A stretch of 48,336 bases of DNA. It comes from a virus. Lineage: Duplodnaviria; Heunggongvirae; Uroviricota; Caudoviricetes. Shown here piece by piece: positions 6,861 to 43,179 of the stretch. The translations under genes and the position numbers were made by a program. The stretch lies in IMG/VR virus record IMGVR_UViG_2874968258_000013. The stretch is one strand, 5' to 3'. The notes beneath the pieces are model-generated. The model did not search any database, had not been told where the DNA came from, and saw only the letters and a list, made by a program, of their open reading frames with translations. Positions within the stretch are counted from its first letter, which is position 1. Every line of letters begins with the position of its first letter.

Positions 6861-6946
6861 ATTCTTAATCCAAGAACATACTCCCTACCTATAGCAAAAT
6901 CACTTTTTTAACAAAAGAATAACGTATTTAGGTAATCATTACGAAT

Positions 6947-11192: not shown

Positions 11193-11262
11193 AATTACCT
11201 CTCGCTTTTCTGCAATAAAAAAGGCGTCATTCCTGACGCCATTTATTGGGGTTATAAATATT

Positions 11263-14200
11263 TCAACGAATACTGATGCCGGAAGCCGCTTTTTTGGTCA
11301 CAATCACCGTACAGTCGGTGATATTGCCTGCCCCCTGATTGCCTTTCTGGAAAATCTTAAACTCCAGAGTGACGCTACCACCACCACTAGGCATATCAAT
11401 AACTGCACTGTAACTACCGGGAATGGCACCTTTAGTTTCTCTGGATGCGATTAATACGCCGTTTTTGCGAACTTCAAAACCATAACCCGTGTATCGCGTG
11501 CCTCCTGGGTTATTTCCGCTCCCCGGATCGTCATACGCTATACCGTTAAAAATAATGGGCGGAATAATAATCTGGCGGTCAAAGTTATGATCATCGCTTA
11601 TGGTGACTGTAACCGTCCCGTTTGGTGTTTCCGTGTTACCCCACGTACCAGCCTGTTTCGGAAATGATTTGGATACAGCTTTAACGAAGTCACCTCTGAC
11701 CTGAGTCGCCTCCAGCATGCCCTTAATCGTACAGTTTTCATTTACCGTGACATTGTTGAGCGTCCCGGCGTTCGCATTCACACTGCCACTGATATCCGCA
11801 TTTTTAGCGGTCAGCTTTCCGTCCGGAGTCAGGGAAAATGCCGATGGATTTCCACCGCTGGTAATGGTGGGGGCCGTCAGGCGTTTCAGGAACACGTCGT
11901 TCATGAATATCTGATCGCCCTGACCAACAAACATCGGTTTTGTGTTGCCATTCGCAGGATTAACCATCGCAATCCTGTCCGCCGCCAGCAGCACCTGACT
12001 CTGCATGCCGTCAGGGGTGTTCTCAATACCGGCACCAATACCCGCGATATAAAGGCGTCCGTCCTGCATCTGCTGCAGCTTCACAGCCCACATGCTGTTC
12101 AGGTTATTATTTGTATCAACCTGAACCTTCTGTATCTGCTGAATTGCCGCACTCTGGTCTTCCAGTTTCTTATTGACGGTCTGCGTGATTTCATTGCTGA
12201 CATCCGTAATGGACGTCCTGATTTCAGCCAGGTCAGGCGCAAGCTGACCGTTATCAATCTGCGTCCACAGCTCCTGAGCCAGATGGGTTTTCCCTATCTC
12301 GCCTTTGAAAAAATCCAGATAACCGGATGCATCATCACTCGGCTGACCGACAGCCTCCACGAATGCCGATTTGCCAACGGTGTTCACACTGCGGATATAA
12401 AAGTAATAATCATGGCCCGGTTTGATATTGATACTGGCGGCTATCCAGTACAGCGCCGTGCCAAGATAGCGTGCTGTGGTTTCAACCTGCCTGATATCCG
12501 CAATCCGCTTTTCCGAGAACCAGAACTCAAACTGTACCGTCGGATCATAAACCGCAAGATGCGGCGTGGCGGTTATCTGAAAATAGCCCGGCGTCAGCTC
12601 AATCCGCGACAGCGCTGCCGGTGCGGCAATCCGGAACGATACCGACGCCGGATCGCCCTGCTGCCCCCACGCATTTACTGCCCGGACTGTCAGCCTGTAG
12701 TTCCCCAGCGCCAGTTGTGTGAAGCGGTAAGTGGTTTCCGTCGTCCGGGCCGTGCTGACCAGCCGCTCACTGCCGTCATCCGCTGTTACGGTCAGACGGA
12801 GCAGGAAGCTCACGCCCTTCACCACCTTCGGCGTGTCCCAGCGCGCCAGCACCTGATATTCCCCGCTGTCTGCGGTGACTTCGGCAGTCAGGTGCTGCAC
12901 CGCTGGCGGCGTGACACCATTCACCGTGCCGCTCTGGTCGCCGTCAAAGTGCGCCCCGTTATCCACGATGGCTTCTTTTTCCGGCACATGCTGCACGGCG
13001 GTGATGGCATACGTGCCGTCGTCGTTCTCACGGATACTCACGCAGCGGAACAATCGCTGGTGCAGCGTCGGCAGCTTCAGCCCCCACACGCTGTATTCAG
13101 CAACACCGTCAGGAACACGGCTCACTTTTACCTTCACGCCGTCGGTGACGGACTGGACCTCCACGCTGACCGGATTCCCCTGCCCGTCAACCAGGCTTAT
13201 CAGCGTGGTGCCGGAGGATGGCAGCGTGATTTCACGGTCGAGCGTCAGCGTCCGGGTCTGGCTGTTCACCGCCAGCACGCGCCCGCCGGTGCGGATACCG
13301 GCATAGTCATCATCGCAGATTTCAATGACATCGCCCGGTACATGACGAAGCCCTTCAGCACCCACGCTGAAATCCACGGTCTGCGTCTCCAGCAGTTCCG
13401 TTTTAATCAGCCACAGCCCGGCGCGGTGTGCCTGCCCCCGGCTGGTACAGCCAAAGGCATCCATCTTCGTGACGTTACGACCGTAACGGACAATGGCCTG
13501 CGTATCCTCCACAAGCTCTGTCGCCGTCTCCCAGCCGTTATCCGGGTCAATCCAGTTCACCTCAACGGCATTATGGCGGTCTTTCAGGGCGCTGAAACTG
13601 TAGCGGAACGGCGCGCCATCATCCGGCATCACCACATTACTGCGGTTATAGGCCCACACCTTATCCGACTGTCGGTCCTGCACGAACGTCAGCGTCTGCC
13701 CGTTCCATACCGGCATACAGCGCATCGCCGAGCAGAAATCACTGAGCACATCCCACGCCTTGCGCTGTGTGGTCAGCCAGGCATTACAGGTGATGCGCGG
13801 CTCCGTGCTGCCAAAGCCGTCCGGCACCGACTGGTCACAGTACTGGCCGATGACATACAGCGCCCATTTATCCACATCTGCCGCACCAAGACGTTTCCCC
13901 ATGCCATAGCGCGGATGGGTCAGCATATCCCACAGACACCAGGCCATGTTGTTGCTGTATGCCGGTTTTAACGTTCCGTCCCAGATACCGCTGTATTGCC
14001 GCGTCTGCGGATTATAGTTCGACGGCACCTGCAGAATGCGCCCGCGAAGATGATAATTACGGCTCACCTGCTGGCTGCCGAACTGCTCCGAATCCACCTG
14101 TACGCCGACCAGTGCCGTGTTCGGGTAGCACTGTTTCACATCGATGATTTCGGTGTATGACGACCAGAGCGTTTTGTTCTGCAGCTGGTCTGTGGTGCTG

Positions 14201-14760
14201 TCCGGCGTCATTCTGCGCATCCGGATATTAAACGGGCGCGGCGGCAGGTTATCCACCACCACCGAGGCCAGATACTGCGAGGTGGTTTTGCCCTTAATGG
14301 TGATGTCTTTTTCCGTCACCCAGCCACCGTTACGCTGTATCTGAACCAGCAGGCGAACTTCAGACGGATTCCTGTCTCCCTTTGAGGTGGTTTCCACCAG
14401 TGCCTGTACACCGAAGGTAAAACGCAGTCGGTCAATGTTTGCCGACGTGATGGTCCGGGTGATCGGCGTGTCATATTTCACTTCCGTACCCAGCACCGTC
14501 TCGGAGCCGGAGGATTCAAATCCCTCCGGCGGTGACTGCTCCTGCTCACCTGCCCGGAACACCACCGTGACGCCGGAGATGTTGGTATTCCCCTCACTGT
14601 CCAGCACCGGCGTACTGTTCAGCAGCACGCTTTTTAATCCATCCACCGGACCTTCAACCGGCCCTTCGCTGATGGCATCGATCACACTCAGCAGCTGCGT
14701 GGACTTCAGGTTGTCCTTCGCTTCGCGCGGGGTATGCCCCTTACTGCTGCCTTTACCCAT
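11263..14760 (-). CDS. J: tail tip / host specificity protein J
   Basis: 1165 aa, N-terminal 900+ aa recalled as near-identical to lambda J. Confidence 0.92.
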
Positions 14761-14820
14761 TCGTCATGCTCCATAAACGATAAAACCGCCCGGAGGCGAT
14801 TTCACATAAAACATTTTGCA

Positions 14821-15492
14821 TCAGCGACCAATCACCACAACCTGACCACCGTCCCCTTCGTCTGCCGTGCTGATCTCCTGAGATACCACACGTGACCCCA
14901 CGCGCATTTCACCATACAGAACAGGCATAACATTGCCCTGGGCAACCATGTTATCCAGTGAGGAGAAATAGATGTTCTGCTTACCGTTATCCGTTGTCTG
15001 TGTGCGGGGAGTTCTGGCTTTCGGTGCCAGCATCTGAGCCACACCGCCGAGCACCATACTGGCACCGAGAGAAAACAGAATGCCGGTCATACCACCGGCA
15101 CCAATGGCAGCCCCCCATGCTGCAAGGGTGGCTCCGGCGGTAAAGAATGATCCGGCAATGGCGGCTGCTCCCAGGACAATCTGGAATACACCACCTGACT
15201 TGGCCCCGGCGACTCTGGGAACAATATGAATCACAGCGCCGTCAGGCAGAGCCTCATGTAACTGCGCCGTTAATCCGGACGTGCTAACATCCTGCCCGGC
15301 AATACGCACCTGATACCAGCCGTCGCTCAGCTTCTGACGAAACGCAGGGAGCTGTGTGGCCATCGCCCGGATGGCTTCGGCACCCGTTTTCACACGAAGG
15401 TCGATGCGGCGGCCAAATCGTTGCAAATCCCCGTAAAGGCAGATGCGTGCCATGCCCGGTGACGCCAGAGGGAGTGTGTGCGTCGCTGCCAT
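14821..15492 (-). CDS. I: tail assembly protein I
   Basis: 223 aa MAATHTLPLASPGMARICLYGDL..., lambda I-like. Confidence 0.9.
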   Translation of the reverse strand: MAATHTLPLASPGMARICLYGDLQRFGRRIDLRVKTGAEAIRAMATQLPAFRQKLSDGWYQVRIAGQDVSTSGLTAQLHEALPDGAVIHIVPRVAGAKSGGVFQIVLGAAAIAGSFFTAGATLAAWGAAIGAGGMTGILFSLGASMVLGGVAQMLAPKARTPRTQTTDNGKQNIYFSSLDNMVAQGNVMPVLYGEMRVGSRVVSQEISTADEGDGGQVVVIGR

Positions 15493-16133
15493 TTGTCGGT
15501 ATACCTCTCTCGTTTGCTCAGTTGTTCAGGAATATGGTGCAGCAGCTCGCCGTCACCACAGTAAATGGCGGCATGATTCGGCACCGATGAACCAAAACAG
15601 CACAGCAGCACATCGCCCGGCTGCGCCGCTGACAACGGCACCTGATACAGCCCTGTGGCCTCCAGATTATCCAGATAGAGATTCTGACCGTGACGCCACC
15701 AGTCATCCTCACGATGAAAATCCGGCATCTCAATCCCCGCCAGATGGTAAGCATCCCGGAACAGCGTGTAACAGTCCGTCACCCCGTGCTCAAAGCGCCG
15801 CCCGGTAAGATGTGGCACACAGCGGAACTTGTGAATCGCCCCCCGGCAGACCAGCCACCACGGCAAATCACTCTGCACCTGCAGCCGCCGGTCGGCCTCA
15901 CTCAGCCAGGGCAGACCACCGGGGTGGCTGTGGACCAGTGCCACAATCTCACCCTGCATCTCTGCCTGCAGCCAGTCTTCCGGCGACATACGGAAATACG
16001 CCTCCGGCTCACCGGAGATATTCACGCAGGGGAAATATCTTTCCCCCTCCGGCGTTCTTACCACGAAGCCGCACGACTCCGCTGGAGCACATCGCCGGGC
16101 GTGCGCCAGAATCGCTGATTCTGTCTCTGTCAT
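15390..16133 (-). CDS. K: tail tip assembly protein K (JAMM/MPN plus NlpC/P60 domains)
   Basis: HSHPGG...SEAD JAMM motif and Cys-containing NlpC/P60 region; ORF opens right after L; classical 199-aa lambda K start would be the internal Met at 15989. Confidence 0.85.
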   Translation of the reverse strand: MTETESAILAHARRCAPAESCGFVVRTPEGERYFPCVNISGEPEAYFRMSPEDWLQAEMQGEIVALVHSHPGGLPWLSEADRRLQVQSDLPWWLVCRGAIHKFRCVPHLTGRRFEHGVTDCYTLFRDAYHLAGIEMPDFHREDDWWRHGQNLYLDNLEATGLYQVPLSAAQPGDVLLCCFGSSVPNHAAIYCGDGELLHHIPEQLSKRERYTDKWQRRTHSLWRHRAWHASAFTGICNDLAAASTFV

Positions 16134-16138
16134 GGGAT

Positions 16139-16837
16139 TTACTGCGAAAGTTTGTTAATGGAAAGGAAGCCGCCAAAGTTGCCGACGTTATTGCGAAACT
16201 TACAGCCACTCAGGCATTTGCTGCATTTATCCTTCGTGATGTCGGACGTTGGCTGGTCATATTCATCCGCGACCGCCGGACCGTGATAACCGCACTCATC
16301 GCCGCGATAGGTCCAGGTGCAGGTGTTGGCCAGCATGATACGTCCCGGAAAAACAGCGCCATCTGTTTCCGTCGGCGTGGACAGTACAAAAGAGGCACTC
16401 ACCGCGCTCAGTTCGCTGCACTGCTCAATGCGCCAGCGGCTGATCACCTCCTGCTCCGGATCGGCGTCACTGTTTCCGTTGACGAAGTTCACCGCATCCA
16501 GAAAACGGGCGTAAACCTTACGCCGGACCACCGTTCCGCCGACCAGACTCTGTAGATCTTCCGCCATCCCGGTGACCATACCGTACAGGTTAGAAACCAT
16601 CAGCGTGGGGCGCGTACTGGTGCCTTTGCCATTCAGTTCAAAACCACTCCCCTGAATGGGATACGGCTGATACTGTCGCCCCTGCCAGGTGACCGGCTCA
16701 CCTTTTTCGTTCTGCTCATTACAGAAAAAATAACGTTCTCCACCGACCTCTGTCAGATCGATTTCCCAGAGCACCACGCTGGCCGACTGCTCCGCACGGG
16801 TGCATTCATTCAGTGTTTCCTGCCGGATATCCTGCAT
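16139..16837 (-). CDS. L: tail tip protein L
   Basis: 232 aa, lambda L-like with C-terminal Cys cluster. Confidence 0.9.
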   Translation of the reverse strand: MQDIRQETLNECTRAEQSASVVLWEIDLTEVGGERYFFCNEQNEKGEPVTWQGRQYQPYPIQGSGFELNGKGTSTRPTLMVSNLYGMVTGMAEDLQSLVGGTVVRRKVYARFLDAVNFVNGNSDADPEQEVISRWRIEQCSELSAVSASFVLSTPTETDGAVFPGRIMLANTCTWTYRGDECGYHGPAVADEYDQPTSDITKDKCSKCLSGCKFRNNVGNFGGFLSINKLSQ

Positions 16838-17166
16838 CAGTTCACCACCTGTTCAAACTCTGCGCTGAACTCAACACGCAGCATACTGACCCGCGACGAC
16901 CATTTTGCGCAGGTCACCTTTATCTGCCGCCACTCATAAGGCGGCGTCCACAGAAAGGCTTTCCAGCCCCCGTGCTCTTCCAGAAACGACTCCAGTACCA
17001 TGGCCTCCTCACGGGGGACAGAAAGCGTCACGCTGTACGTTTTCAGGTTGGCATTCAGCCCGGCAGGCGCTCGCTGGGAATAGCCATCACCAAAGCGCAC
17101 CTTTCTTACAGAAGGGGCCGAAGCCACATCCATACCGGGTTTCACTTTCCAGCGGAAGGTTTTCAT
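16837..17166 (-). CDS. M: tail tip protein M
   Basis: 109 aa, lambda M-like. Confidence 0.9.
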   Translation of the reverse strand: MKTFRWKVKPGMDVASAPSVRKVRFGDGYSQRAPAGLNANLKTYSVTLSVPREEAMVLESFLEEHGGWKAFLWTPPYEWRQIKVTCAKWSSRVSMLRVEFSAEFEQVVN

Positions 17167-19724
17167 CGTCCACCTCCGGAGAACAGGCCACCATCACGCA
17201 TCTGTGTCTGAATTTCATCACGGGCACCCTTGCGGGCCATGTCATACACGGCCTTCATCATCTGTGGACCTGGCAGACCATTCGTACCGTCGTTCTGAAT
17301 CACCACGTGATTGTTCTGATTAAAATTAATGCCTTCAGCCCGCCGCATCTGCGCCGGACTTCCGGCACCGCCCACATAACCACCTTCCGCATAGCCGCGC
17401 ATCAGCCGGTAGAGATTCCCCACGCCAATCCGGCTGGTTGCCTCCTTCGTGAAGACAAATTCACCACGGTGAACAATCCCCGCTGGCTCATATTTGCCGC
17501 CGGTTCCCGTAAATCCCCCGGTTGCAAAATGGAATTTCGCCGCAGCGGCCTGAATGGCTGTACCACCTGACGCGGATGCGCCGCCACCAACAGCCCCGCC
17601 AATGGCGCTGCCGATACTCCCGACAATCCCCACCATTGCCTGCTTAAGCAGAATTTCTGTCATCATGGACAGCACGGAGCGGGTGAAGCTGCGCCAGTTC
17701 TGTTCACTGCCGGTCAGCATCGCCGCCATATTCTGTGCAATACCATCAAAGGTCTGCGTGGCTGCACTTTTAACCTGTGACATACTGTCCGTGGCGCTCT
17801 CTTCCCACTCACTCCAGCCGGACTTCAGGCCTGCCATCCAGCTCCCGCGAAGCTGGTCTTCAGCCGCCCAGGTCTTTTTCTGCTCTGACATGACGTTATT
17901 CAGCGCCAGAGGATTATCGCCATACTGTTCCTTCAGGCGCTGTTCCGTGGCTTCCCGCGCTGCCTGCCGGTCAGTCAGCCCCCGGTTTTTCGCATCAATG
18001 GCTGCCCGTTTTGCCCGTTGCTGCTGTGCGAATTTATCCGCCTGCTGCGCCAGCGCATTCAGGTGCTCCTGATACGTAACCTTGTCACCAAGTGCAGCCA
18101 GCTGGCGTTTGTACTCCAGCGTCTCGTCTTTATGCGCCAGCAGGGATTTCTCCTGTGCGGACAGCTGGCGACGTTGTGCCGCCTCCTCCAGTACCGCGAA
18201 CTGACTTTCTGCCTTCCACAAATCCCGGCGCTGCTGGCTGATTTTCTCATTCGCTCCGGCATGCTTCTCCAGCGTCCGGAGTTCTGCCTGAAGCGTCAGC
18301 AGGGCCGCATGAGCACTGTCTTCCTGACGATCGCCCGCATACACCTTCACGCCGGACTGTTTCGGCTTTTTCAGCGTCGCTTCATAATCCTTTTTCGCCG
18401 CCGCCATCAGCGTGTTGTAATCTGCCTGCAGGATTTTTCCGTCTTTCAGTGCCTTGTTCAGTTCTTCCTGACGGGCGGTATATTTCTCCAGCGGCGTCTG
18501 CAGCCGTTCGTAAGCCTTCTGCGCCTCTTCGGTATATTTCAGCCGTGACGCTTCGGTATCGCTCTGCTGCTGCGCATTTTTGTCCTGTTGACGCTGTTGA
18601 TCTACCCTCTTTTGGGCTGCATCCCGCTCCAGGCGTTTTTTTTCACGATCATCCCAGTAACGCGCCCGTGCTTCATCGTTAACGAAATAATCATCCTTGC
18701 GCAGATTCCAGATGTCGTCTGCTTTCTTAAACGCAGCCTCTGCCTTAATCAGCATCTCCTGCGCGGTATCAGGACGACCAATATCCAGCACCGCATCCCA
18801 CATGGATTTGAATGCACGTGCAGTCCTGTCTGCCCAGGTCTCCAGCGTGCCCATGTTCTCTTTCAGGCGGCGGGTCTGGTCATCAAACCCTTTCGTTGCG
18901 GCCTCGTTCGCCGCCTGCAATGCCCCGGCTTCATCGCCGGAACGCTGCAACTGAGCAACATACGCAATCTGCTCCGCCGTCACGTTATGGAACTGGCGTG
19001 CCATCGCCGTCAGCCCCGACGTCGGGTCTGTGGTCAGCTTCCCGAAGGCTTCAGCGACCTTGTCCACCTCCACGCCGGATGCAGAGGAGAAACGCGCCAC
19101 ACTCTGGCTGATGGACGCAATCTGAGCCTCACCGCTTACCCCCGCCTTAACCAGTGCGCTGAGTGACTCGCTGGTCTGGTTAAACGTCAGCCCTGCCGCC
19201 TGCCCGGCTCTGGACAGGACCAGCATACGATCTGCCGTCAGTCCCGCCTGATTACCGGAAAGGACCAGCGTTTTGTTGAAATCGGACAGGGTTGAGTTGC
19301 CCTGATACCAGGCATACGCCAGCGCACCGGTCGCCACCGCCAGCGAGGTGGCCCCCACCATCGGCAGGGTGATCGCGCCGGCAAGCCCCCTGAACATGGG
19401 GATCATCCCGCCGAAGGAGTCCTTAACCTGACCACCCTGTTGCAGCAGGATCAGCCAGGGATTCTGCCCCCCTGCAAGCTGCGTGGCCACGTCGGTGAAC
19501 TGTGCAGGCAGCATACGCATGGCGGCTTTATACTGCCCGACGGAAATCCCCGCTTTCTGTGCAGCCAGCGCCTGTCGGCTCAGCGACTGTTCAACGACTG
19601 CCGCTGTTTTTTTCGCATCACTTTCCGTACCGGAAAAATGACGCCTGACTCTGGCCATCTGCTCGTCAAATCTGGCCGCATCCAGACTCAAATCAACGAC
19701 CAGATCGCCTACCGGTTCAGCCAT
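17163..19724 (-). CDS. H: tail tape measure protein H
   Basis: 853 aa, coiled-coil-rich, lambda H-like. Confidence 0.92.
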   Translation of the reverse strand: MAEPVGDLVVDLSLDAARFDEQMARVRRHFSGTESDAKKTAAVVEQSLSRQALAAQKAGISVGQYKAAMRMLPAQFTDVATQLAGGQNPWLILLQQGGQVKDSFGGMIPMFRGLAGAITLPMVGATSLAVATGALAYAWYQGNSTLSDFNKTLVLSGNQAGLTADRMLVLSRAGQAAGLTFNQTSESLSALVKAGVSGEAQIASISQSVARFSSASGVEVDKVAEAFGKLTTDPTSGLTAMARQFHNVTAEQIAYVAQLQRSGDEAGALQAANEAATKGFDDQTRRLKENMGTLETWADRTARAFKSMWDAVLDIGRPDTAQEMLIKAEAAFKKADDIWNLRKDDYFVNDEARARYWDDREKKRLERDAAQKRVDQQRQQDKNAQQQSDTEASRLKYTEEAQKAYERLQTPLEKYTARQEELNKALKDGKILQADYNTLMAAAKKDYEATLKKPKQSGVKVYAGDRQEDSAHAALLTLQAELRTLEKHAGANEKISQQRRDLWKAESQFAVLEEAAQRRQLSAQEKSLLAHKDETLEYKRQLAALGDKVTYQEHLNALAQQADKFAQQQRAKRAAIDAKNRGLTDRQAAREATEQRLKEQYGDNPLALNNVMSEQKKTWAAEDQLRGSWMAGLKSGWSEWEESATDSMSQVKSAATQTFDGIAQNMAAMLTGSEQNWRSFTRSVLSMMTEILLKQAMVGIVGSIGSAIGGAVGGGASASGGTAIQAAAAKFHFATGGFTGTGGKYEPAGIVHRGEFVFTKEATSRIGVGNLYRLMRGYAEGGYVGGAGSPAQMRRAEGINFNQNNHVVIQNDGTNGLPGPQMMKAVYDMARKGARDEIQTQMRDGGLFSGGGR

Positions 19725-20157
19725 ACCGGACTCCTCCTGCGATCCCTTCTGATACTGTCATCAGCATTACGTCATCCTCCGTCATGTCCGCCACATCCGG
19801 GGAAGCGGGGATAACTTCATTCCCGTCCGGGCCAAAGCGGACACCTCCGGCAAGCCCTGCCGCTTTCTGCATCAGCACATCATCTTCAGGCTCTTCGTCA
19901 GCCTCGCGCCGGTTCAGCAGACTGAAATCCAGCGGATGCATCTCCGGATCGCTGAAAAACAGGCTGAGCACGGTGTACGTCAGCCCGGAAAAGTGCATAT
20001 CCAGCAGAACATCATGAAAATAATGGGTACTGTAAAAGCGGTGCCAGTCGGCATACTCCGTGGATGACATCCCGGCAAGCATGGCGCGCCAGTCGGGTCG
20101 CCCCATCTCACGCGCCAGTTTCAGGGCAAAACTCAGCTCACCGTCGAACACTTTCCC
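19717..20157 (-). CDS. T: tail assembly chaperone T segment (made as G-T fusion by -1 frameshift)
   Basis: ORF in -1 frame relative to G beginning at the GGGAAAG slippery heptamer; lambda T-like sequence. Confidence 0.85.
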   Translation of the reverse strand, partial: GKVFDGELSFALKLAREMGRPDWRAMLAGMSSTEYADWHRFYSTHYFHDVLLDMHFSGLTYTVLSLFFSDPEMHPLDFSLLNRREADEEPEDDVLMQKAAGLAGGVRFGPDGNEVIPASPDVADMTEDDVMLMTVSEGIAGGVRYG

Positions 20158-20555
20158 GCAGAAACAGGCTCTGCAGGCCCGGCGTCCTCTGCCTGTTCAG
20201 GAGCATCATTCACCACAAACTCATACATACCGGACAGCCGGTACACCACGTTTTCAGCATGAGAAATTGCCTCTGTGGGCCAGGTGGTAAGCACTTCCTG
20301 CTCAATCTGTTTAACGGCTTCATTCATGGACGGCATCTGCGTCTTCTTCGGATGGTTATGCCACAGGGACATCGCAACCACAAAAGCGCCGGTTCTGATG
20401 GCGTCTTCCACAGTAAACTTCCGGTTGCTGTCTGACTCCGCCTGTTCTGCCTGCCGTTTCATCAGGTCGAGATGCTCAATACGCTGCAGGGCTGACAGTT
20501 CAGAAAGCGTGACGGTCACACCGTTATGTTCAAATGATTCGGTTTTCAGGAACAT
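20133..20555 (-). CDS. G: tail assembly chaperone G
   Basis: 140 aa ending ...SAGKCSTVS, lambda G-like. Confidence 0.9.
   Translation of the reverse strand: MFLKTESFEHNGVTVTLSELSALQRIEHLDLMKRQAEQAESDSNRKFTVEDAIRTGAFVVAMSLWHNHPKKTQMPSMNEAVKQIEQEVLTTWPTEAISHAENVVYRLSGMYEFVVNDAPEQAEDAGPAEPVSAGKCSTVS
20151..20157 (-). promoter_or_regulatory. programmed -1 ribosomal frameshift slippery site G GGA AAG (G to G-T)
   Basis: heptamer GGGAAAG read on minus strand at the G/T frame junction. Confidence 0.85.
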
Positions 20556-20570
20556 CGCTGACTCTCCGGA

Positions 20571-21311
20571 TTAACTGGCGGTGACGTTGATTTCTGCAAC
20601 CGCAGCAAACTCACCATTACCAGATACGACCGGAATGTTGACCTTGCCTGCAGCAACACCTTTCACGGTGATGGTCATACCACTGACCGACACGGTGGCT
20701 TTTGTTTTATCCGCAGACACCGCACGGAAGCTCTTGTCGGTTGCGCCATCCGGCTGGAATGCCACGGTCAGCGTGGTGCTCTGCCCTTTCACTACGGAAG
20801 CACTGGCGGGTGTCACCGTCATGCCGGTCGTCGCCGTCACCGTGCTGCGATCTTCTGCCATCGACGGACGTCCCACATTGGTGACCTTCACCGTGCGGGT
20901 AATCACCTCCTTCGCCGTCACCGCCTTACCGATACTGCTGACCCAGCCACGGAACACATCGACCGTGCCGTTCGGGAAGCGGATTTTATAGGCACGGGTA
21001 TCACCTTCATTAAACCACGCCAGCAGCGCCTGCTGCCCCTGCTCTCCGGGCATCCACGCCAGCGTGAAGCTGGTATCTCCGGCAGATTTCTGCCCCTGCC
21101 CGGTCGCAGTCCAGTCTGCATCTTCATCATCGAGATAGCTGTCGTCATAGGACTCAGCGGTCAGTTCGCCGGGCGTCAGGTCTTTAACTTTTGCCAGACG
21201 CGACCAGTCAACGTCTGAAAGCGGGTTCGCATAAGGGTCACCGCTCCCCTTATAAACCCACAGGGTGGTCCCGGCACCTTTCACCGGCATTGTAGGATTT
21301 GGTACAGGCAT
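20571..21311 (-). CDS. V: major tail protein V
   Basis: 246 aa from [22 protein letters not shown]; C-terminal Ig-like region. Confidence 0.92.
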
Positions 21312-21318
21312 AGCGTCC

Positions 21319-21714
21319 TCACATTTCATAGATAATGACATAAGTCAGATCGGCTGAACTCCACAGGCCCGCATCATCGTCGCGCCGGTAGTCATAGCCG
21401 CTGGCCACCATACTGGTGATCAAATCTGACAGTGCCGGGATATCGCTCATCACCGGATAAATCCGGGACTCCATCCACGAATCCAGCTCTGAATCCGGCA
21501 CCTGAGCAGGCAGGAAAACTTCAATATGCAGCTCCGCCTGCCAGGTATCGCTGTCCAGCTCTTCGCCCGTGTATTCAGCGCCGGTGAGATAAACGGCAAT
21601 TGCCGGAAAATCTTCCTCATCAAAAACAGCGGGGCGACCATCAAAAAGCGTCGCCCCGGTGTCATGCTTCTCCAGTGCATCCAGTACGGCTGCACGGAGT
21701 TCAGTATGTTTCAT
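21319..21714 (-). CDS. U: tail terminator protein U
   Basis: 131 aa, lambda U-like. Confidence 0.9.
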
Positions 21715-22289
21715 CGCTTTATTACCATTCTCAGTTGATGCTGCAGCGCATAGCCCAGCTCTTTCGGAAGACGTTCACGCCGTATCCGTTCAATATTCTG
21801 TTTAAACGCCGTGGTCAGCGGCACCGCCATCGGGATTTTCACCACATCAATGGGGTAACGGTTTTTCCCGGCCACACGCTGCATAACATGCCACCGGCCG
21901 TTTTTCAGTTGCTGAATAAACGCGCCGGGAATACGACGGTTACCCACCACAAGCACGCTGCCGCCACCTTTCAGGGATGAACGCTGCCCCTTTTTATGAC
22001 GCCTGCGGCGGGACAGGACAACCCGCGCATTACCCAGCTTGATTACGGGCAAATCCCCCCGGTTAACTTTGATTCTGGCCTGCGGATTTTTGACCGTGGC
22101 CCTTTTCAGCCTGGCCCTTTCCTTTACCAGTTTCCGGCGTACCTTTGTCTCACGGGCAACCTGTGACGCAGACTGCGATATCGCGGATGAAGCAACGCGG
22201 TTAATGGCCATTGCGGCGGCACCGGGCACCGCCGTTTTGCTGATACGGCTGAGGTTTTCAACGGCCTGCTCAAGACCTTTTATGGCCAT
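21711..22289 (-). CDS. Z: tail completion protein Z
   Basis: 192 aa, lambda Z-like. Confidence 0.88.
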   Translation of the reverse strand: MAIKGLEQAVENLSRISKTAVPGAAAMAINRVASSAISQSASQVARETKVRRKLVKERARLKRATVKNPQARIKVNRGDLPVIKLGNARVVLSRRRRHKKGQRSSLKGGGSVLVVGNRRIPGAFIQQLKNGRWHVMQRVAGKNRYPIDVVKIPMAVPLTTAFKQNIERIRRERLPKELGYALQHQLRMVIKR

Positions 22290-22300
22290 ACATCCCCCTT

Positions 22301-22654
22301 TCAGCGGCGACGGTTAACGGCAGGCGGTACGCCCCGTCCAAGCCAGAGATGACAACTTCCGCCATCATCCGGCGAAACCCGATCTACCCAGAAATTTTCC
22401 TCACCGATGGTCAGCGTGTCTCCACGCCGCAGCTGCCGCACCTCATCAGTCCGGACAAACAGGGACGGGCTGGAGCCTTCAACGCGCACGCCCTGTCCGG
22501 CATAGCTGATATTTTCAGGGTCATCAAAAACACCACGTATCACCGCACCTGACTGCTCACCGGATGTCATGGTGGCTGACGTTCCCATGTACCCGCGTAT
22601 CGTTTCATCGGCGCGGGCAATGGCAGCATCGAACAGGTTATCGAAATCAGCCAC
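22301..22654 (-). CDS. FII: head-tail joining protein FII
   Basis: 117 aa, lambda FII-like. Confidence 0.88.
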   Translation of the reverse strand: MADFDNLFDAAIARADETIRGYMGTSATMTSGEQSGAVIRGVFDDPENISYAGQGVRVEGSSPSLFVRTDEVRQLRRGDTLTIGEENFWVDRVSPDDGGSCHLWLGRGVPPAVNRRR

Positions 22655-22665
22655 AGCGCCTCCCG

Positions 22666-23064
22666 TTATTGCATTCTGGCCAGGCCGCGCTCTGTCATTT
22701 CGGCTGCCACACCGGCAGAGACACGAAACGCCGTTCCCGGCAGCACAAATGCCACAGGTTTATCCCGCGTGGCGTGAAGTGCATCAGTATGCAGCGTCAC
22801 CAGTGCCACGACCGTGACCAGTTCAGCCGTATCCTGAATCACGGTATCCGGCTGCGCTGATACCACCTCATTTTCATGCCCGGTCAGCACATTTTCCCGG
22901 CTGAGAGGGGTGTCCTGACCGGCAGTTTCATCCGTGTCATCAAGCTCTTCTTCCAGCTCTGCCACACGAAGCGCCAGTTCTTCTTTCGTTCCCGTCAAAC
23001 TGACATCGCGGTTCAATTGCTCACCCAGCTCCTGAAGACGGGCAATCAGTTCATCTTTCGTCAT
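22666..23064 (-). CDS. FI: DNA packaging protein FI
   Basis: 132 aa from MTKDELIARL, lambda FI-like. Confidence 0.88.
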   Translation of the reverse strand: MTKDELIARLQELGEQLNRDVSLTGTKEELALRVAELEEELDDTDETAGQDTPLSRENVLTGHENEVVSAQPDTVIQDTAELVTVVALVTLHTDALHATRDKPVAFVLPGTAFRVSAGVAAEMTERGLARMQ

Positions 23065-23105
23065 GAACTCCTCCACAGAGAGAAAATGGCCCCGAAGGGC
23101 CATGA

Positions 23106-24131
23106 TTACGCCAGTTGAACGGACACGAACTCATCAGGATCAGCCAGCAGCATCAGCGGTGCTGACTGAATCATGGTGAACTCACGCGCCGGATCGCCGG
23201 TGGTCACCCAGTTTTTCGGGTAACGGGCAGAGGCGTTAATGCCTTCGCGCTGTGCGTCCGCATCCTGAATGCAGCCATAGGTGCGCAGACCGCGAGCCTG
23301 AGTGTTCCCCAGCACCATCGTGTTGTCCGGCAGGAAGTTCTTTTTGACGCCGTTTTCCACGTACTGTCCGGAATACACGACGATGGCCACATCGCCATAC
23401 ATTCCCTTATAGGACACCGCTTTGCCCAGGTCTTTTACCGCTGTCTCCAGCTCGGAATGAGAGCCGCGACGGGTATCCAGCTTCTCCTTGACGGCTTTGA
23501 AGGAACGGAACAGCGCCCAGCCTTTCGGGTCAAACACGATGATATTCACCACACCGCTGGCGTTCAGCGCGTAGGCTTCGATATCGTCGGTCGGGTCATA
23601 CGTGGACTTGTCACGCTTGCTCCACTCCGTGACGCCGGACTGTGTGATGTTGTTCGCCGCACTGCGGCCCATATCCACCTCAACCGGATCGAAGGCTTCA
23701 CCGGTCATGGTGTATTTGCCCTTGAGCACGGCAGAAACTGCCTGCATCTCTTCGACCTGAGCAATGGCCAGCTCTTCGTCACGCATGTTCTGCATGATGA
23801 TGCGACGGCGGCGGTAAGCCGGGTCCGCCAGATTCTGCGGATCTTCATCCGGCAGGCGACGCAGGGTCATCTGCGGATTCACCTCATGCTTGGGTTTGAC
23901 ATATCCCGGCGTAAATTCAGAGGTGGAGCCGCCACGGGAACGGATAACCTCACCGGAAACAATCGGCGAAACGTACAGCGCCATGTTTACCAGTCCCGGA
24001 ATTTGTGAGAGATAGACTTTCTCCGTAGTGAAGGGATAGCTCTCACGGAAAAAGAGACGCAGAAACAGCGGATCAAACTTAAATTTCTGCTCATTTGCCG
24101 CCAGCAGCTGGGCGGTTGTGTACATCGACAT
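23106..24131 (-). CDS. E: major capsid protein E
   Basis: 341 aa from MSMYTTAQLLAANEQ, lambda E-like. Confidence 0.93.
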   Translation of the reverse strand: MSMYTTAQLLAANEQKFKFDPLFLRLFFRESYPFTTEKVYLSQIPGLVNMALYVSPIVSGEVIRSRGGSTSEFTPGYVKPKHEVNPQMTLRRLPDEDPQNLADPAYRRRRIIMQNMRDEELAIAQVEEMQAVSAVLKGKYTMTGEAFDPVEVDMGRSAANNITQSGVTEWSKRDKSTYDPTDDIEAYALNASGVVNIIVFDPKGWALFRSFKAVKEKLDTRRGSHSELETAVKDLGKAVSYKGMYGDVAIVVYSGQYVENGVKKNFLPDNTMVLGNTQARGLRTYGCIQDADAQREGINASARYPKNWVTTGDPAREFTMIQSAPLMLLADPDEFVSVQLA

Positions 24132-24186
24132 AAAAAAATCCCGTAAAAAAAGCCGCACAGGCGGCCTTTAGTGATGAAGGGTAAAG

Positions 24187-24519
24187 TTAAACGATGCTGA
24201 TTGCCGTTCCGGCAAACACGGTCCGTTTTTTCGTCTCGTCGCTGGCAGCCTCCGGCCAGAGCACATCCTCATAACGGAACGTGCCGGACTTGTAGAACGT
24301 CAGTGTGGTGCTGGTCTGGTCAGCAGCAACCGCAAGAATGCCAACGGCAGCACCGTCGGTGGTGCCATCCCACGCAACCAGCTTACGGGTGGAGGTGTCC
24401 AGCATCAGCGGGGTCATTGCAGGCGCTTTCGCACTCAATCCGCCGGGCGCGGTTGCGGTATGAGCCGGGTCACTATTGCCCAGCGGCTGGTAATGGGTAA
24501 AGGTTTCTTTGCTCGTCAT
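24187..24519 (-). CDS. D: head decoration protein D
   Basis: 110 aa from [12 protein letters not shown], lambda D-like. Confidence 0.92.
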
Positions 24520-24528
24520 AAACATCCC

Positions 24529-25828
24529 TTACACTGGTGTGTTCAGCAAATCGTTAACGGCATCAGATGCCGGGTTACCTGCAGCCAGCGGTGCCGGTGC
24601 CCCCTGCATCAGACGATCCAGCGCAGTGTCACTGCGCGTCTGTGCACTCTGTGGTGCTGCGGCCAGAATACGGCGGGCCGTTTCCACGGTCATACCGGGG
24701 GTTTCGGCCAGCACGCGTGCCTGTTCTTCGCGTCCGTGAGCCTCCTCACAGTTGAGGATCCCCATAATGCGACTGTTTTCTGCCGCAACCGCTGCGGTGA
24801 TCTGCGCGTTCACGTCCGGCTGCGCCGCGCTGGCGTTCTCGCCCTCCGTCGCTTGCACCACGCCAGTAACGTCAGCCTGCGAAGCAGTGGCTGAAACAGT
24901 TGTTGATTGAGTCTCTTTGGTCATTCGCCCTCCTGAGAGACGGGATTTACGTGCATCCAGTGCATCACGCATGACGGTGATCGCATCGGTACTGTTAACA
25001 AGTTCATCAGCCAGTCCGGCATCAATGGCCTCCTGACCGCTGTACACTGCAGCCTCGGTATCCAGCACAGCCTGCACGGACAGGCCGGTATATGCCGACA
25101 CCTTCTGTGCAAACATCCGGCGGGTTGCATCCATCCGGGACTGCAATGTTTCCCGGACATCATCCGGTAGATGGCTGTAGGGGTTGCCATCCACCTTATG
25201 GCTGCCGCTGTAAATCAGCGTGATTTCCACGCCCTGTTTCTCCAGTGCAGCGCCGTAATTACTGTGAGCCATCATGACGCCGATGGAGCCTGTCCGGGCG
25301 GTCTGCGTGACCAGACGCCGGGAGGCGGCACTGGCAAGCAGCTGACCTGCGCTGCAGTTCATGTCATTGGCCAGCGCCCATACCGGCTTTATGTCACGCA
25401 CACGGGCGATGATGTCAGCGCAGTCAAATGCTCCCGCCACCATTCCGCCCGGTGTGTCCATATCGAGCAGAATGCCGTCCACCATCGGGTCGCTGGCAGC
25501 CTGTTGCAGAAGGGCAATAATGCCGTTGTAACCGGTCATCCCCGAGTACGGCTGCAGCGCCCGCGTCCGGCTGACCAGCGTGCCGGACACCGGCAGCACG
25601 GCGATGCCGTTCATTACCTGATAACTGCGGGCCTGTCGTGGTCCGTCATCATCACCGGATAACGCCAGCGCCGCGGGTGCCTCTCCGGCAGTCAGGCTGT
25701 CGCCGGATACTGCATCCGTCAGGCAGCTGATCCCAAGCTGGCCTGCAAGCGCACAAAAGAAAACCCGCGCATAGGCGGGTTCAAGCATCAGCGGCTCATT
25801 AAAAGCCATGCTGGCAATATGCGGGAGA

Positions 25829-25848
<20 letters not shown>
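24529..25848 (-). CDS. C: head maturation protease/scaffold C (with nested Nu3 scaffold frame)
   Basis: 439 aa lambda C-like; codon at the conserved start position is GTG here. Confidence 0.85.
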
Positions 25849-29529
<3,681 letters not shown>

Positions 29530-29555
<26 letters not shown>

Positions 29556-30075
29556 TCAGCAACCCCGGTATCAGTTCATCCAGCGCGGCTGCTTTGTTCA
29601 TGGCTTTGATGATATCCCGTTTCAGGAAATCAACATGTCGGTTTTCCAGTTCCGGAAAACGCCGCTGCACCGACAGGGGGATCCCGTCGAGAATACTGGC
29701 AATTTCACCTGCGATCCGCGACAGCACGAAAGTACAGAATGCGGTTTCCACCACTTCAGCGGAGTCTCTGGCATTTTTCAGCTCCTGTGCGTCGGCCTGC
29801 GCACGCGTAAGTCGATGGCGTTCGTACTCAATAGTCCCTGGCTGGAGATCTGTCTCGCTGGCCTGCCGCAGTTCTTCAACTTCCCGGCGCAGCTTTTCGT
29901 TCTCAATTTCAGCATCCCTTTCGGCATACCATCTTATAACGGCGGCAGAGTCATAAAGCACCTCATTACCCTTGCCACCGCCTCGCAGAACGGGCATTCC
30001 CTGTTCCTGCCAGTTCTGAATGGTACGGATACTCGCACCGAAAATGTCAGCCAGCTGCTTTTTGTTGACTTCCAT
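29530..30075 (-). CDS. nu1: terminase small subunit Nu1
   Basis: 181 aa MEVNKKQLADIFGASIRTIQNWQEQGMPV, lambda Nu1-like. Confidence 0.93.
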
Positions 30076-30079
30076 TGTT

Positions 30080-30270
30080 CATTCCACGGACAAAAACAGA
30101 GAAAGGAAACGACAGAGGCCAAAAAGCCCGTTTTCAGCACCTGTCGTTTCCTTTCTTTTCAGGGGGTGTTTTAAATAAAAACATTAGGTTACGGCGAAGA
30201 AGAACGGAAACGCCTTAAACCGGAAAATTGTCATAAATAGCGAAAACCCGCGCGCCTTCCGCCCCGTAAC
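30080..30270 (-). other. cos site region (cosB plus cosN-like core at 30253-30264)
   Basis: minus-strand sequence GTTACG-GGGCGGAAGGCG-CGCGGGTTTTCGCTATTTATGA... colinear with recalled lambda cos; right half of the 12-nt core differs. Confidence 0.7.
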
Positions 30271-30463
30271 CTGTCGGATCGCCGGAAAGGACCCGCAGAA
30301 TGATAATAATTATCATCTACATGTCACAACGTGCATCTACGCCATCAAACCACGTCAAATAATCAATTATGACGCAGGTATCGTATTAATTGATCTGCAT
30401 CAACTTAACGTAAAAACAACTTCAGACAATACAAATCAGCGACACTGAATACAGGGCAACCTC

Positions 30464-30697
30464 ATGTCAACGAAGAACAGAACCCGCAGAACAACAACCC
30501 GCAACATCCGCTTTCCTAACCAAATGATTGAACAAATTAACATCGCTCTTGTTCAAAAAGGGTCCGGGAATTTCTCAGCCTGGGTCATTGAAGCCTGCCG
30601 CCGGAGACTGTGCTCAGAAAAAAGAGTTTCGCCTGAAGCAAACAAAGAAAAGAGTGACATTACTGAATTGCTCAGAAAACAGGTTAGACCAGATTGA
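30464..30697 (+). CDS. ribbon-helix-helix (Arc/CopG-like) DNA-binding protein, lambda right-end ORF homolog
   Basis: 77 aa; N-terminal region recalled as matching the ORF at the right end of lambda (complementary strand). Confidence 0.6.
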   Translation: MSTKNRTRRTTTRNIRFPNQMIEQINIALVQKGSGNFSAWVIEACRRRLCSEKRVSPEANKEKSDITELLRKQVRPD

Positions 30698-31344: not shown

Positions 31345-32250
31345 CTATATTTCCAGACATCTGTTATCACTTAACCCATTACAAGCCCGCTGCCGCAGAT
31401 ATTCCCGTGGCGAGCGATAACCCAGCGCACTATGCGGATGCCATTCGTTATAATGCTCGAACGCCTCTGCAAGGTTCTTTGCTGCCGTTAACCCGTCTGG
31501 TTTGGGCATGATACTGATGTAGTCACGCTTTATCGTTTTCACGAAGCTCTCTGCTATTCCGTTACTCTCCGGACTCCGCACCGCCGTGTTCTTCGGTTCA
31601 AGTCCCAACATCCGGGCGAACTGGCGTGTTTCATTAGCCCGGTAGCATGAACCATTATCCGTCAGCCACTCCACTGGAGACGACGGAAGATCGTTGCCGA
31701 AGCGGCGTTCCACCGCTCCCAGCATGACGTCCTGTACTGTTTCACTGTTGAAGCCGCCGGTAGTCACCGCCCAGTGCAGTGCCTCACGATCACAGCAGTC
31801 CAGCGCGAACGTGACACGCAGTCTCTCTCCGTTATCACAGCAGAACTCGAACCCGTCAGAGCACCATCGCTGATTGCTTTCTTTCACGGCCACTCTGCCT
31901 GTATGTGCCCGTTTCGATGGCGGTACAGCAGGTTTTCGCTCAAGCAACAGCGCATTCTGGCGCATGATCCGGTAAACACGTTTGGCATTGATCGCAGGCA
32001 TACCATCAAGTTCTGCCTGTCTGCGAAGCAGCGCCCATACCCGACGATAACCATACGTGGGCAGCTCTCCGATAACATGGTGTATACGGAGAAGCACATC
32101 CGTATCATCAGTGTGACGACTGCGGCGGCCATCCATCCAGTCATCGGTTCGTCTGAGAATGACGTGCAACTGCGCACGCGACACCCGGAGACAACGGCTG
32201 ACTAAGCTTACTCCCCATCCCCGGGCAATAAGGGCGCGTGCGCTATCCAC
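31345..32250 (-). CDS. insD: IS2 transposase OrfB (InsD)
   Basis: 301 aa DDE transposase, overlaps insC in -1 frame. Confidence 0.92.
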
Positions 32251-32618
32251 TTTTTTGCCCGTCCATATTCAACGGCTTCTTTGAGGAGTTCATTTTCCAT
32301 CGTTTTCTTGCCGAGCAGGCGCTGGAGTTCTTTAATCTGCTTCATGGCGGCAGCAAGTTCAGAGGCAGGAACAACCTGTTCTCCGGCGGCGACAGCAGTA
32401 AGACTTCCTTCCTGGTATTGCTTACGCCAGAGAAATAACTGGCTGGCTGCTACACCATGTTGCCGGGCAACGAGGGAGACCGTCATCCCCGGTTCAAAGC
32501 TCTGCTGAACAATTGCGATCTTTTCCTGTGTGGTACGCCGTCTGCGTTTCTCCGGCCCTAAGACATCAATCATCTGTACTCCAATGACTAGTCTAAAAAC
32601 TAGTATTAAGACTATCAC
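32208..32618 (-). CDS. insC: IS2 transposase OrfA (InsC)
   Basis: 136 aa [24 protein letters not shown]... Confidence 0.92.
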
Positions 32619-34501: not shown

Positions 34502-34995
34502 TGTTTCCCCCACAAACAGACTTCACGCTCAATCTCACGGCGAGTCATCAGTCCTTTCCATTGATTACCGCCAGCGTATGTCCAGCGCCGTAGCTGATCA
34601 CATGCGCCTTTAATATCACCCTGGTTTATTTTGCGAAGAAGCGTCGATGTTCTGAAATTGCCAGCACCCACGTTGTAGACGAACGAGTAAAGAGCGCAGC
34701 GCGTTGTTTCCGGTATATCGACTTTGATGTACGGGTTAATTTGTCTGGCGACAGTGGCAAGGTCTTTATTCAGGAGGGCTTTGCACTCTGCTTCGGTATA
34801 CGTTTTACCGGGAATGATGTCTTTTCCTGTATGCCCGTAACATACAGTCCATACACCAACTATGTCTTTGTAAGGATTATGTCTCACACCTTCCAGACCA
34901 TCGTTACCACCTGGGCCAGTGATTAACACAGATGCTATAGCAATAGCCCCGCCACCAATAGCAGCAGCAACAGCTTTTCGTAATGATGGAGGCAT
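34498..34995 (-). CDS. R: SAR endolysin (phage lysozyme, phage-21 R-like)
   Basis: 165 aa; N-terminal Gly/Ala-rich signal-anchor-release segment followed by lysozyme domain. Confidence 0.85.
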
Positions 34996-35210
34996 TATCC
35001 ACCTCTCGCAGCCTTGCGCTTATCTTCTTTAATCTTGAAATAAAGGTTTGTCAGGTACGTCAGCAGGCCAAATACCAGGCTACCCAGCACTCCAATTGCC
35101 GCCCACTGTGAGGGCGTGACTTTATCTAGCAGCTGTAAAAACCAGTACCCGGCACTACCTGCTGAGGTGCCATAGGCGACACCCGTTGTTAACTTATCCA
35201 TGGATTTCAT
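34995..35210 (-). CDS. S: pinholin (phage-21 S21-like holin)
   Basis: 71 aa [26 protein letters not shown]..., two TM segments, basic C-terminus. Confidence 0.85.
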
Positions 35211-35321
35211 AACCCCACCTCGCAGACAAAGCGGGTGTAAATTGAGGGAATACTACGAAACGTAACAGACTCGGAGTCAGTGAATAACTCAGGTATTGGG
35301 TTATCAGCTAATATCGAGACT

Positions 35322-35345
35322 CAAAAAATGGAAAAACCCGCTCGA
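35322..35345 (-). terminator. tR'-like rho-independent terminator upstream of S
   Basis: minus-strand AAACCCGCCGTCGAGCGGGTTTTT hairpin about 115 bp upstream of S start. Confidence 0.55.
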
Positions 35346-35455
35346 CGGCGGGTTTAAGCTGTGTGACGAAGTAACCACTCTTAACAGCATAACCAATTTT
35401 GGTGATGCTGCCAACTTACTGATTTAGTGTATGATGGTGTTTTTGAGGTGCTCCA

Positions 35456-35731
35456 GTGGCTTCTGTTTCTATCAGCTGTCCCTCCTGTTCAGCTACTGAC
35501 GGGGTGGTGCGTAACGGCAAAAGCACTGCCGGACATCAGCGCTATCTCTGCTCTCACTGCCGTAAAACATGGCAACTGCAGTTCACTTACACCGCTTCTC
35601 AACCCGGTACGCACCAGAAAATCATTGATATGGCCATGAATGGCGTTGGATGCCGGGCAACTGCACGCATTATGGGCGTTGGCCTCAACACGATTTTACG
35701 TCACTTAAAAAACTCAGGCCGCAGTCGGTAA
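35456..35731 (+). CDS. insA: IS1 InsA
   Basis: 91-aa ORF within IS1. Confidence 0.92.
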
Positions 35732-36153
35732 CCTCGCGCATACAGCCGGGCAGTGACGTCATCGTCTGCGCGGAAATGGACGAACAGTGGGGCTATGTCG
35801 GGGCTAAATCGCGCCAGCGCTGGCTGTTTTACGCGTATGACAGTCTCCGGAAGACGGTTGTTGCGCACGTATTCGGTGAACGCACTATGGCGACGCTGGG
35901 GCGTCTTATGAGCCTGCTGTCACCCTTTGACGTGGTGATATGGATGACGGATGGCTGGCCGCTGTATGAATCCCGCCTGAAGGGAAAGCTGCACGTAATC
36001 AGCAAGCGATATACGCAGCGAATTGAGCGGCATAACCTGAATCTGAGGCAGCACCTGGCACGGCTGGGACGGAAGTCGCTGTCGTTCTCAAAATCGGTGG
36101 AGCTGCATGACAAAGTCATCGGGCATTATCTGAACATAAAACACTATCAATAA
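35650..36153 (+). CDS. insB: IS1 InsB
   Basis: 167-aa ORF within IS1. Confidence 0.9.
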
Positions 36154-36558
36154 GTTGGAGTCATTACCCCAATTTTTTACGTACGTAAACCACTAAATGA
36201 TATTTGCGAGAATGCTACCGAGTATTGAAAACACCACTACAAATACATAAGCAAATCCCAACAAATAACCAACAAATAATTTCCAGTGTTATTTTTAGCC
36301 GGTTTAAATTGAACCTTCAAATTATAGAGCACTTATAAATAACAGCCGTTAATATAAATTGGCTAATAGATTTATTTTTATTCAGCCAAGAGCCATGAAT
36401 AGGATTCGATAGAAAAAAGTTCAGATAAAAATAGAGATCTACTTCACAAATCAAACGAGAAACCAAAACTTACATCTTGAAATAATCACATTGATTAGAT
36501 GAATATTTATCGCGCAGTGACATCATTTTTTAATAATAGTTCAAAAAAAGGGCTCACG

Positions 36559-37641: not shown

Positions 37642-37770
37642 TTTGATTACTAAAAGATATGTTGCGGGAGGCTTTGCCTCCCCAACATATAAGTGGCTCC
37701 CTCAAGCCACTTCCTTTAGGAGCACAACCTTGCTTCTAACTATATAAACCTTCTGTTATATATTACCCTT

Positions 37771-37803
37771 TATTTTTGGGGGCGTTGCAACGCCCCATTT
37801 TTA
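37771..37803. terminator. bidirectional rho-independent terminator between convergent nmpC and Q
   Basis: TTTTT-GGGGCGTTGCAACGCCCC-ATTTTT palindrome. Confidence 0.65.
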
Positions 37804-37829
37804 ATAATTTTTAGTAAACAATTGGCATA

Positions 37830-38213: not shown

Positions 38214-38298
38214 CAACTTACTCCACAAAAATCAGACCAGAACGCCAATTACAAGCAAAAATCAACAAAACAGTATTAGTTGATTGTTATCTCTGACT

Positions 38299-41209: not shown

Positions 41210-43179
<1,970 letters not shown>

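Follow-up and report, generated by a model that had tools for sequence, protein, structure and literature searches.

The nicking site cosN of the lambda-like phages is functionally asymmetric. Base pairs 7-12, which comprise the right half of the site, vary naturally with little effect on cleavage (Feiss et al. 2015, PMC4669245), and many mutations in this half have a minimal phenotype, whereas symmetric mutations in the left half are severe; the G2C change carries a cost of about 10-fold, whereas C11G has no effect (PMC4669245). The left half and the CG pairs that flank the nicks are conserved, selected positions of cosN, and cosQ, a 7-bp site, is conserved along with these CG pairs (PMC4669245). 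In the published account of the asymmetry, the bottom strand is nicked by cosB-anchored TerL with little dependence on the sequence (PMC4669245); the endonuclease centres of TerL are not highly sequence-specific, the enzyme is anchored by cosB-bound TerS, and the spacing between TerS and R3 positions the nick (PMC9026076). The cosN of N15 and phiD326 (GGGCGGCGTCCG) differs from that of lambda at positions 9 and 12, and the N15 site has been shown by experiment to be interchangeable with the lambda site for both terminases, neither of which displays cosN specificity (PMC4669245). In the Salmonella phage Gifsy-1, which is lambda-like and whose cosB is complex, the right half is likewise a natural variant, with bp 8, 9 and 11 different from those of lambda (PMC4669245).

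The DNA analyzed here is a stretch of 48,336 nucleotides (IMG/VR record IMGVR_UViG_2874968258_000013; hereafter, the window) in which an initial annotation had noticed a cos site with a divergent core. On the minus strand, positions 30270..30241 read GTTACG-GGGCGGAAGGCG-CGCGGGTTTTCG, letter for letter as annotated, with the 12-nt core at 30264..30253. The lambda genome (NC_001416) starts with GGGCGGCGACCT CGCGGGTTTTCG, so the lambda core with which the site had been compared in the initial annotation was correct. The core differs from that of lambda at positions 7, 8, 9, 10 and 12, so that the right half of cosN changes from CGACCT in lambda to AAGGCG in the window; C11 is unchanged, and the original statement that the last six positions differ holds for the other five. 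The likeness to the lambda cos is not a matter of chance because a collinear lambda alignment extends on both sides of the site and breaks at the core: positions 30252..12264 correspond to lambda bp 13-18002 at 96.9% identity, positions 30626..30265 correspond to the last 362 bp of lambda (48141-48502) at 94.8% identity, and the interruption falls precisely at the 12 nt. The alignment to NC_001416 and to other cos sites, which had been proposed as a check, confirms the variant and shows that it is shared with other lambdoid loci. In the vicinity of the core, immediately before cosQ on the minus strand (30297), the window has CATTCTGCGGG in place of CATTTTGCGGG, a substitution seen nowhere else among 247 related loci; two further changes that looked private, +35 A>C and +78 T>C, are common to 12 and 24 other loci, respectively. 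The 321-bp cos region has no exact match in complete E. coli genomes, with the best match at 98.1%, which hints that the window may come from a genome of the Shigella type. Inspection by eye ruled out an inversion as the origin of the variant 6-mer because CGACCT reads AGGTCG, and not AAGGCG, on the opposite strand.

The other cos subsites are intact. The heptamer GGGTCCT, which we take to be cosQ, the packaging-termination signal (presumably lambda bp 48473-48479), is located at 30288..30294 on the minus strand, at the lambda spacing from cosN and without indels, and the window shares GGGTCCTTTCCGG with 187 related loci. The 16-bp cosN, CG-GGGCGGAAGGCG-CG (30251..30266, minus strand), has the same left half, GGGCGG, as lambda and the same CG pair on either side, and the conserved cosN pattern CG-GGGCGG......-CG is present at 30266..30251. 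By analogy with lambda (PMC9026076), we infer that the top strand would be nicked between 30265 and 30264 and the bottom strand between 30253 and 30252, yielding a predicted 12-nt 5' cohesive end GGGCGGAAGGCG (30253..30264, minus strand) with the five differences from lambda listed above. The right half is not lambda-identical, C11 alone being common to both, but this mismatch does not bar membership among the lambda-type sites because such differences are 'common' among members (PMC4669245). Within cosB, R3 (AGGCGTTTCCGTTCTT; 30200..30215; cos bp 50-65 by the R3 coordinates of PMC9026076), the inverted R2 (AGAAAGGAAACGACAG; 30141..30156) and R1 (CTGTCGTTTCCTTTCT; 30100..30115), all on the minus strand, are exact lambda matches, which bears out the original remark that the downstream cosB-like sequence is largely conserved. 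The R3-R2 interval (30157..30199, minus strand), the place of the IHF site I1 in lambda, is of the right length and contains several substitutions, for example, GCCGTAACCTAATG for the lambda GTCATAACTTAATG; substitutions in the I1 interval are seen in other loci as well. Overall, the window is the same as lambda in cosQ, GGGCGG, the nick-flanking CG pairs, the 12-bp stagger geometry and the three R sites, but its R2-R1 spacer is 1 nt shorter, so that Nu1 starts at +190, compared with +191 in lambda. The site fits the published asymmetry exactly, with the constrained parts conserved and all the changes located in the zone reported to be free.

Compared with the cosN of N15 and phiD326, the window allele has C11 and G12 in common but differs from lambda at five positions rather than two, and unlike the simple cosB of N15, with its single R3, the window possesses the full lambda arrangement of R3, R2 and R1, with the interval of a putative I1 between R3 and R2. 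Gifsy-1, by its published description, changes other positions, including bp 11, which is kept in the window. With five of the six right-half positions changed, the allele exceeds every experimentally tested variant (two changes in N15 and three in Gifsy-1). The G+C content of the variant end (10/12) is the same as in lambda, and its self-duplex is nearly as stable (-18.6 kcal/mol vs -19.0 kcal/mol), whereas the rotational symmetry of the 16-bp cosN is 8/16 bp in the variant compared with 10/16 in lambda, two of the five symmetric pairs of lambda, 3:10 and 6:7, being lost. Given the five changed positions and the removal of two symmetric pairs, some loss of efficiency may be possible.

The terminase genes that follow the site are intact, and the terminase is 99.5% identical to that of lambda. 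Nu1 (TerS; 29530..30075, minus strand; 181 aa) and A (TerL, or gpA; 27630..29555, minus strand; 641 aa) each differ from the lambda proteins at three residues only, K48R, A75T and L132I in Nu1, and T151S, D185E and T466I in gpA. All these differences are at polymorphic sites, and those in gpA are polymorphic in both cosN allele classes. The lambda genes W to J (11263..27633, minus strand) are all full-length, with a single full-length tblastn HSP for each lambda protein and identities of 94-100%, except for J, and across the 18 kb of morphogenesis genes the identity to lambda is 96.9%. The J protein (11263-14760) consists of 1165 aa, compared with 1132 aa in lambda, and is 81.6% identical, diverging toward the C-terminus; the pattern of divergence suggests a different receptor specificity. 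Beyond J, Lom (10710-11192) is seemingly truncated at the C-terminus (160 aa; Pfam Ail_Lom 1-159 of 199), and a Stf-like fibre of 1029 aa (7528-10617) is full-length, with Tfa at 6947-7528.

The AAGGCG allele is rare but widespread. In a search with allele-specific 51-mers, such that no 28-mer was common to the two alleles, the variant core was detected at 170 places in 159 of the 5,426 complete E. coli genomes, with 16 of these places on plasmids, compared with 8,412 places in 4,486 of the same genomes for the canonical core; thus, the variant accounts for about 2% of the lambda-type cos sites in complete E. coli genomes. The variant core is also present in 78 IMG/VR contigs and 31 public metagenome contigs. 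Its upstream contexts include at least 12 different 16-nt flanks, and it is paired with three TerS/cosB types, namely, the lambda type, the 'MKVNKKKLAEIF...' type, which presumably resembles that of phage 21, and an N15-related type, each of which is also found with the canonical allele. In the best-match alignment, prophages of E. coli 582 and APEC E14033 carry the AAGGCG core, whereas phage 2H10 and lambda(DE3) carry the canonical one. Among 185,579 species-representative genomes searched for occurrences outside Escherichia, the variant in a lambda context was found only in Escherichia sp. E1V33; the other 8 matches were chance hits in GC-rich genomes that lacked lambda flanks.

Several other right-half alleles occur at low frequency. 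A degenerate-pattern scan revealed the rare sister alleles CGACCG, CAGACG, CAGGCG and CTGACG with lambda flanks, of which CAGGCG is a single step away from AAGGCG. In four IMG/VR loci, the rare cosN alleles GGGCGGCGACCG, GGGCGGCAGACG, GGGCGGCAGGCG and GGGCGGCTGACG form, together with the N15 right half, CGTCCG, a partial single-step network in which all the members have C11 and G12. The rare alleles and that of N15 show that the right half of cosN drifts. The allele spectrum is nevertheless bimodal, with about 98% CGACCT, about 2% AAGGCG and very rare intermediates, so that simple neutrality does not fully explain it. When papers mentioning the 12-mer, or the sequence complementary to it, were sought in the searchable library, only irrelevant plant and Streptomyces papers were retrieved and no phage paper. 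Within this scope, AAGGCG is a previously undescribed allele, albeit of a well-documented kind of variation. The initial annotation had named two observations that would undercut it: an incorrect lambda core, which was not the case, and a variant that is the norm in a known phage group, which largely was, in the sense that variation at bp 7-12 is an established pattern.

The variant is not confined to chromosomal prophages. Three complete N15-type linear phage-plasmids carry it, PhiR46_1 (PV340565; host field ECOR13), which is annotated with telL/telR, ParAB, a primase, cI and full lysis, head and tail gene sets, YDC107_1, classed as a Ravinvirus, and pCAVP367-48, a linear plasmid of a clinical isolate that encodes a protelomerase. 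In the E. coli group made up of PV340565, CP025712 and NZ_CP145143, the protelomerase/ParAB/RepA backbone is joined to a three-R cosB and to Nu1/A, all of the lambda type. The TerS of pCAVP367-48 has the same accession (WP_000453567.1) as that of the chromosomal prophage of E. coli 582. A literature search for a paper on the PhiR phage set (PV3405xx) returned none, and plaque formation by PhiR46_1 is presumed from its GenBank host field. The N15-type phage-plasmids depend on packaging for their horizontal spread.

Several lines of comparative evidence address the question whether the variant site is used. Among the loci with enough downstream sequence, both Nu1 and gpA are intact in 42 of the 47 that carry the variant, compared with 40 of 57 canonical ones, and the pN/pS of gpA is virtually the same in the carriers of the variant and of the canonical allele (0.058 and 0.057, respectively). 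As pS among the variant carriers is about 0.07, the allele has endured in diverged backgrounds under normal purifying selection. Covariation of the terminase with the cosN allele was sought and rejected: 4 distinct Nu1 sequences and 3 distinct gpA sequences each occur, in identical form, with both alleles, and there is no diagnostic residue, the largest difference in residue frequency between the allele classes being 0.36 in gpA and 0.35 in Nu1. Perfect association with the allele is limited to the five core positions, and no linked compensatory changes were detected elsewhere in cos, where the strongest association in the flanks, at +71 and +97, is 0.61. In the phage collection, IMG/VR and the metagenome contigs, no record was found with a terminus at the variant cohesive end. 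As judged from sequences, the evidence for AAGGCG as a working cohesive end is indirect but consistent. Of the two possibilities raised originally, a different cohesive end in this lineage gains support, on comparative grounds, from the recurrence of the allele in hundreds of independent Escherichia prophages, viral contigs and complete N15-type phage-plasmids, and from the intactness of, and strong purifying selection on, the linked terminases. The other, a cosN that degenerated in a defective prophage, finds no support as the source of the variant because the variant is a shared allele and the other subsites and both terminase genes are intact.

The element in the window itself does appear to be a defective prophage with a heavy load of insertion sequences. 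The left flank includes the K-12-like backbone genes mlaA (518-1273, minus strand) and a yfdC-like gene of the formate/nitrite-transporter family (1567-2499), followed by argW, a tRNA-Arg(CCT) gene (2575-2649), a P4/IntS-type integrase in the same orientation as argW (2775-3968), an IS3-family transposase fragment (4265-4630) and IS1, and then by tfa, stf, lom, J to Nu1 and cos. The integrase looks like a CPS-53-type remnant rather than the own int of the lambda-like prophage. Beyond cos lie DUF1398, an IS3-family element, KilA-N, Rz, R, an S21-type holin, IS1, a porin, Q, RusA, YbcO and NinB (39248-39703); past NinB, IS21, IS1 and a fragment of lacY take the place of phage sequence. The IS open reading frames (5445-5948, 31345-32618, 35650-36153, 41210-43179, 43261-43764 and 47364-47867) include four IS1 transposases, one IS3-family orfA/orfB and one IS21-family istA/istB pair. 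The late region is interrupted by the IS3-family orfA/orfB element, which sits between cos and the lysis genes, and by an IS1 inserted between the porin (36499-37641, itself between Q and the holin) and the holin. No immunity or replication genes were detected in a scan that covered ORFs of at least 55 aa and Pfam-recognizable repressors, and no early-region similarity to lambda or PhiR46_1 was found in the alignment. A contiguous set of its own immunity (cI/cro), replication and integration modules, as in a complete inducible lambdoid prophage, was not found in the window. The original suspicion of a defective prophage is borne out by the IS insertions and by the immunity and replication genes not seen, but decay as the origin of the variant is not.

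Some features of this region are of separate interest. The late segment at 34995-38228, with the S21-type holin, R, Rz and the porin, is closer to DLP12 of E. coli K-12 than to lambda; Q is located at 37830-38228, with RusA, YbcO and NinB upstream. The same kinds of genes follow in the same order in DLP12 (NinB, YbcO, RusA, Q, porin, S21-type holin, R, Rz, DUF1398), the late order of which we take to be ybcO-rusA-Q-porin-S-R-Rz ... ylcI-nohD, and the close relatives are annotated with the DLP12 names rrrD, rzpD, ylcI and nohD. In contrast to the window, DLP12 lacks a complete morphogenesis module. The lacY 3' fragment (44291-45160; Pfam LacY_symp 125-412 of 413) adjoins IS1 past the truncated prophage and is distant from its K-12 neighbourhood, which implies an IS-mediated chromosomal rearrangement.

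Taken together, these findings indicate, with a probability of about 0.8, that the cos site in the window is genuinely of the lambda type, with cosQ, cosN and cosB ahead of Nu1 and A, and that the right half of its cosN is a naturally occurring minority allele. This conclusion draws on the observed sequence, the conservation of the subsites, the distribution of the allele, the lack of covariation with the terminase and the purifying selection on the linked terminases. Under the mechanism that we consider most plausible, Nu1 dimers would bind R3, R2 and R1, probably with bending by IHF, and so place gpA on cosN; the enzyme would presumably nick the top strand at the junction of G(-1) with G1 and the bottom strand at the junction of bp 12 with bp 13. 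The products would be 12-nt 5' ends, 5'-GGGCGGAAGGCG and its complement, which should anneal and cyclise as well as those of lambda. Across bp 7-12, where the changed bases lie, nicking of the bottom strand would be set by cosB-anchored TerS, without base-specific contacts, so that the ordinary lambda terminase could use the site without adaptation, and we infer that the variant is neutral. The allele itself is probably old and appears to move, through recombination, within a pool of lambda-like prophages of Escherichia and phage-plasmids of the N15 type; the prophage in the window would have inherited it and would have been disabled later, elsewhere, by IS elements. Because the prophage is defective, its cos site is probably idle, that is, an unused but intact relic.

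An alternative view of the same facts is that AAGGCG was selected to differ, defining a second class of cohesive ends such that chromosomes with mixed ends cannot cyclise. Mixed ends could come from tandem heteroallelic prophages, recombined concatemers or packaging by a helper, and the outcome would be partial isolation from canonical co-residents. In favour of this view, a hybrid of a lambda and a variant end would pair over 6 bp only (-9.5 kcal/mol compared with -19 kcal/mol for matched ends), a 2-nt mismatch between ends, as with N15, already costs about 4-fold in yield (PMC4669245), and a single E. coli genome often contains several cos sites of the lambda type, with a maximum of 8-9. The bimodal spectrum with rare intermediates fits this scheme as well. 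However, both ends of a chromosome normally derive from one cos sequence, so that ends would fail to match in special situations only, the frequency of the allele is low (about 2%), the data contain no fitness effect or sign of selection, and neutral spread via recombination at the conserved flanks accounts for them equally well, which makes this explanation quite unlikely. It is decidedly unlikely that the variant is a crippled cosN with poor cutting of the bottom strand that persists through passive carriage in prophages. The defective state of the window prophage, the drop in symmetry from 10/16 to 8/16 bp and the failure to see cleaved ends in the collections listed above are compatible with such impairment, but the linked terminases are intact at least as often as the canonical ones and are subject to identical purifying selection, the allele is known from at least 12 flank contexts, from 3 TerS types and from complete phage-plasmids that need packaging to spread, and changes at bp 7-12 are tolerated in the published genetics (PMC4669245).

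A terminase co-adapted to the variant, with true cosN specificity, is very improbable. Apart from the a priori expectation that a nuclease tracks its site, nothing speaks for such co-adaptation, and it is effectively refuted by the identical gpA and Nu1 that accompany both alleles. Against it also stand the lack of a diagnostic residue, the three polymorphic-site differences that separate each of the window proteins from its lambda counterpart, and the experiments that found no cosN specificity in the lambda and N15 terminases (PMC4669245). Five clustered changes within 6 bp would look odd in isolation and might hint at a sequencing or assembly error, or at private decay in one prophage, but the identical 12-mer in hundreds of independent assemblies refutes these explanations, leaving them practically no probability.

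In its broadest form, the proposal that AAGGCG constitutes a second, mutually non-annealing class of ends in Escherichia lambda-like phages and N15-type phage-plasmids, kept because it blocks hybrid cyclisation, is unlikely; if true, it would present the most extreme natural case of a TerL bottom-strand nick without base contacts at bp 7-10 and 12. The minority-allele reading has more modest implications, and the significance of AAGGCG is modest only. Genome-end tools that search for GGGCGGCGACCT would miss about 2% of the E. coli lambda-type sites, including those in linear phage-plasmids of clinical isolates, and in in vitro packaging or cos cloning with AAGGCG phages, the ends would not anneal to those of lambda. 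AAGGCG is a minor allele in the change-tolerant half of cosN, not a decayed or novel site, and represents the fifth and most divergent natural right-half allele of the lambda-type cosN, with five of the six positions changed. The occurrence of the same terminases with both alleles at the population scale supports the published functional asymmetry of cosN.
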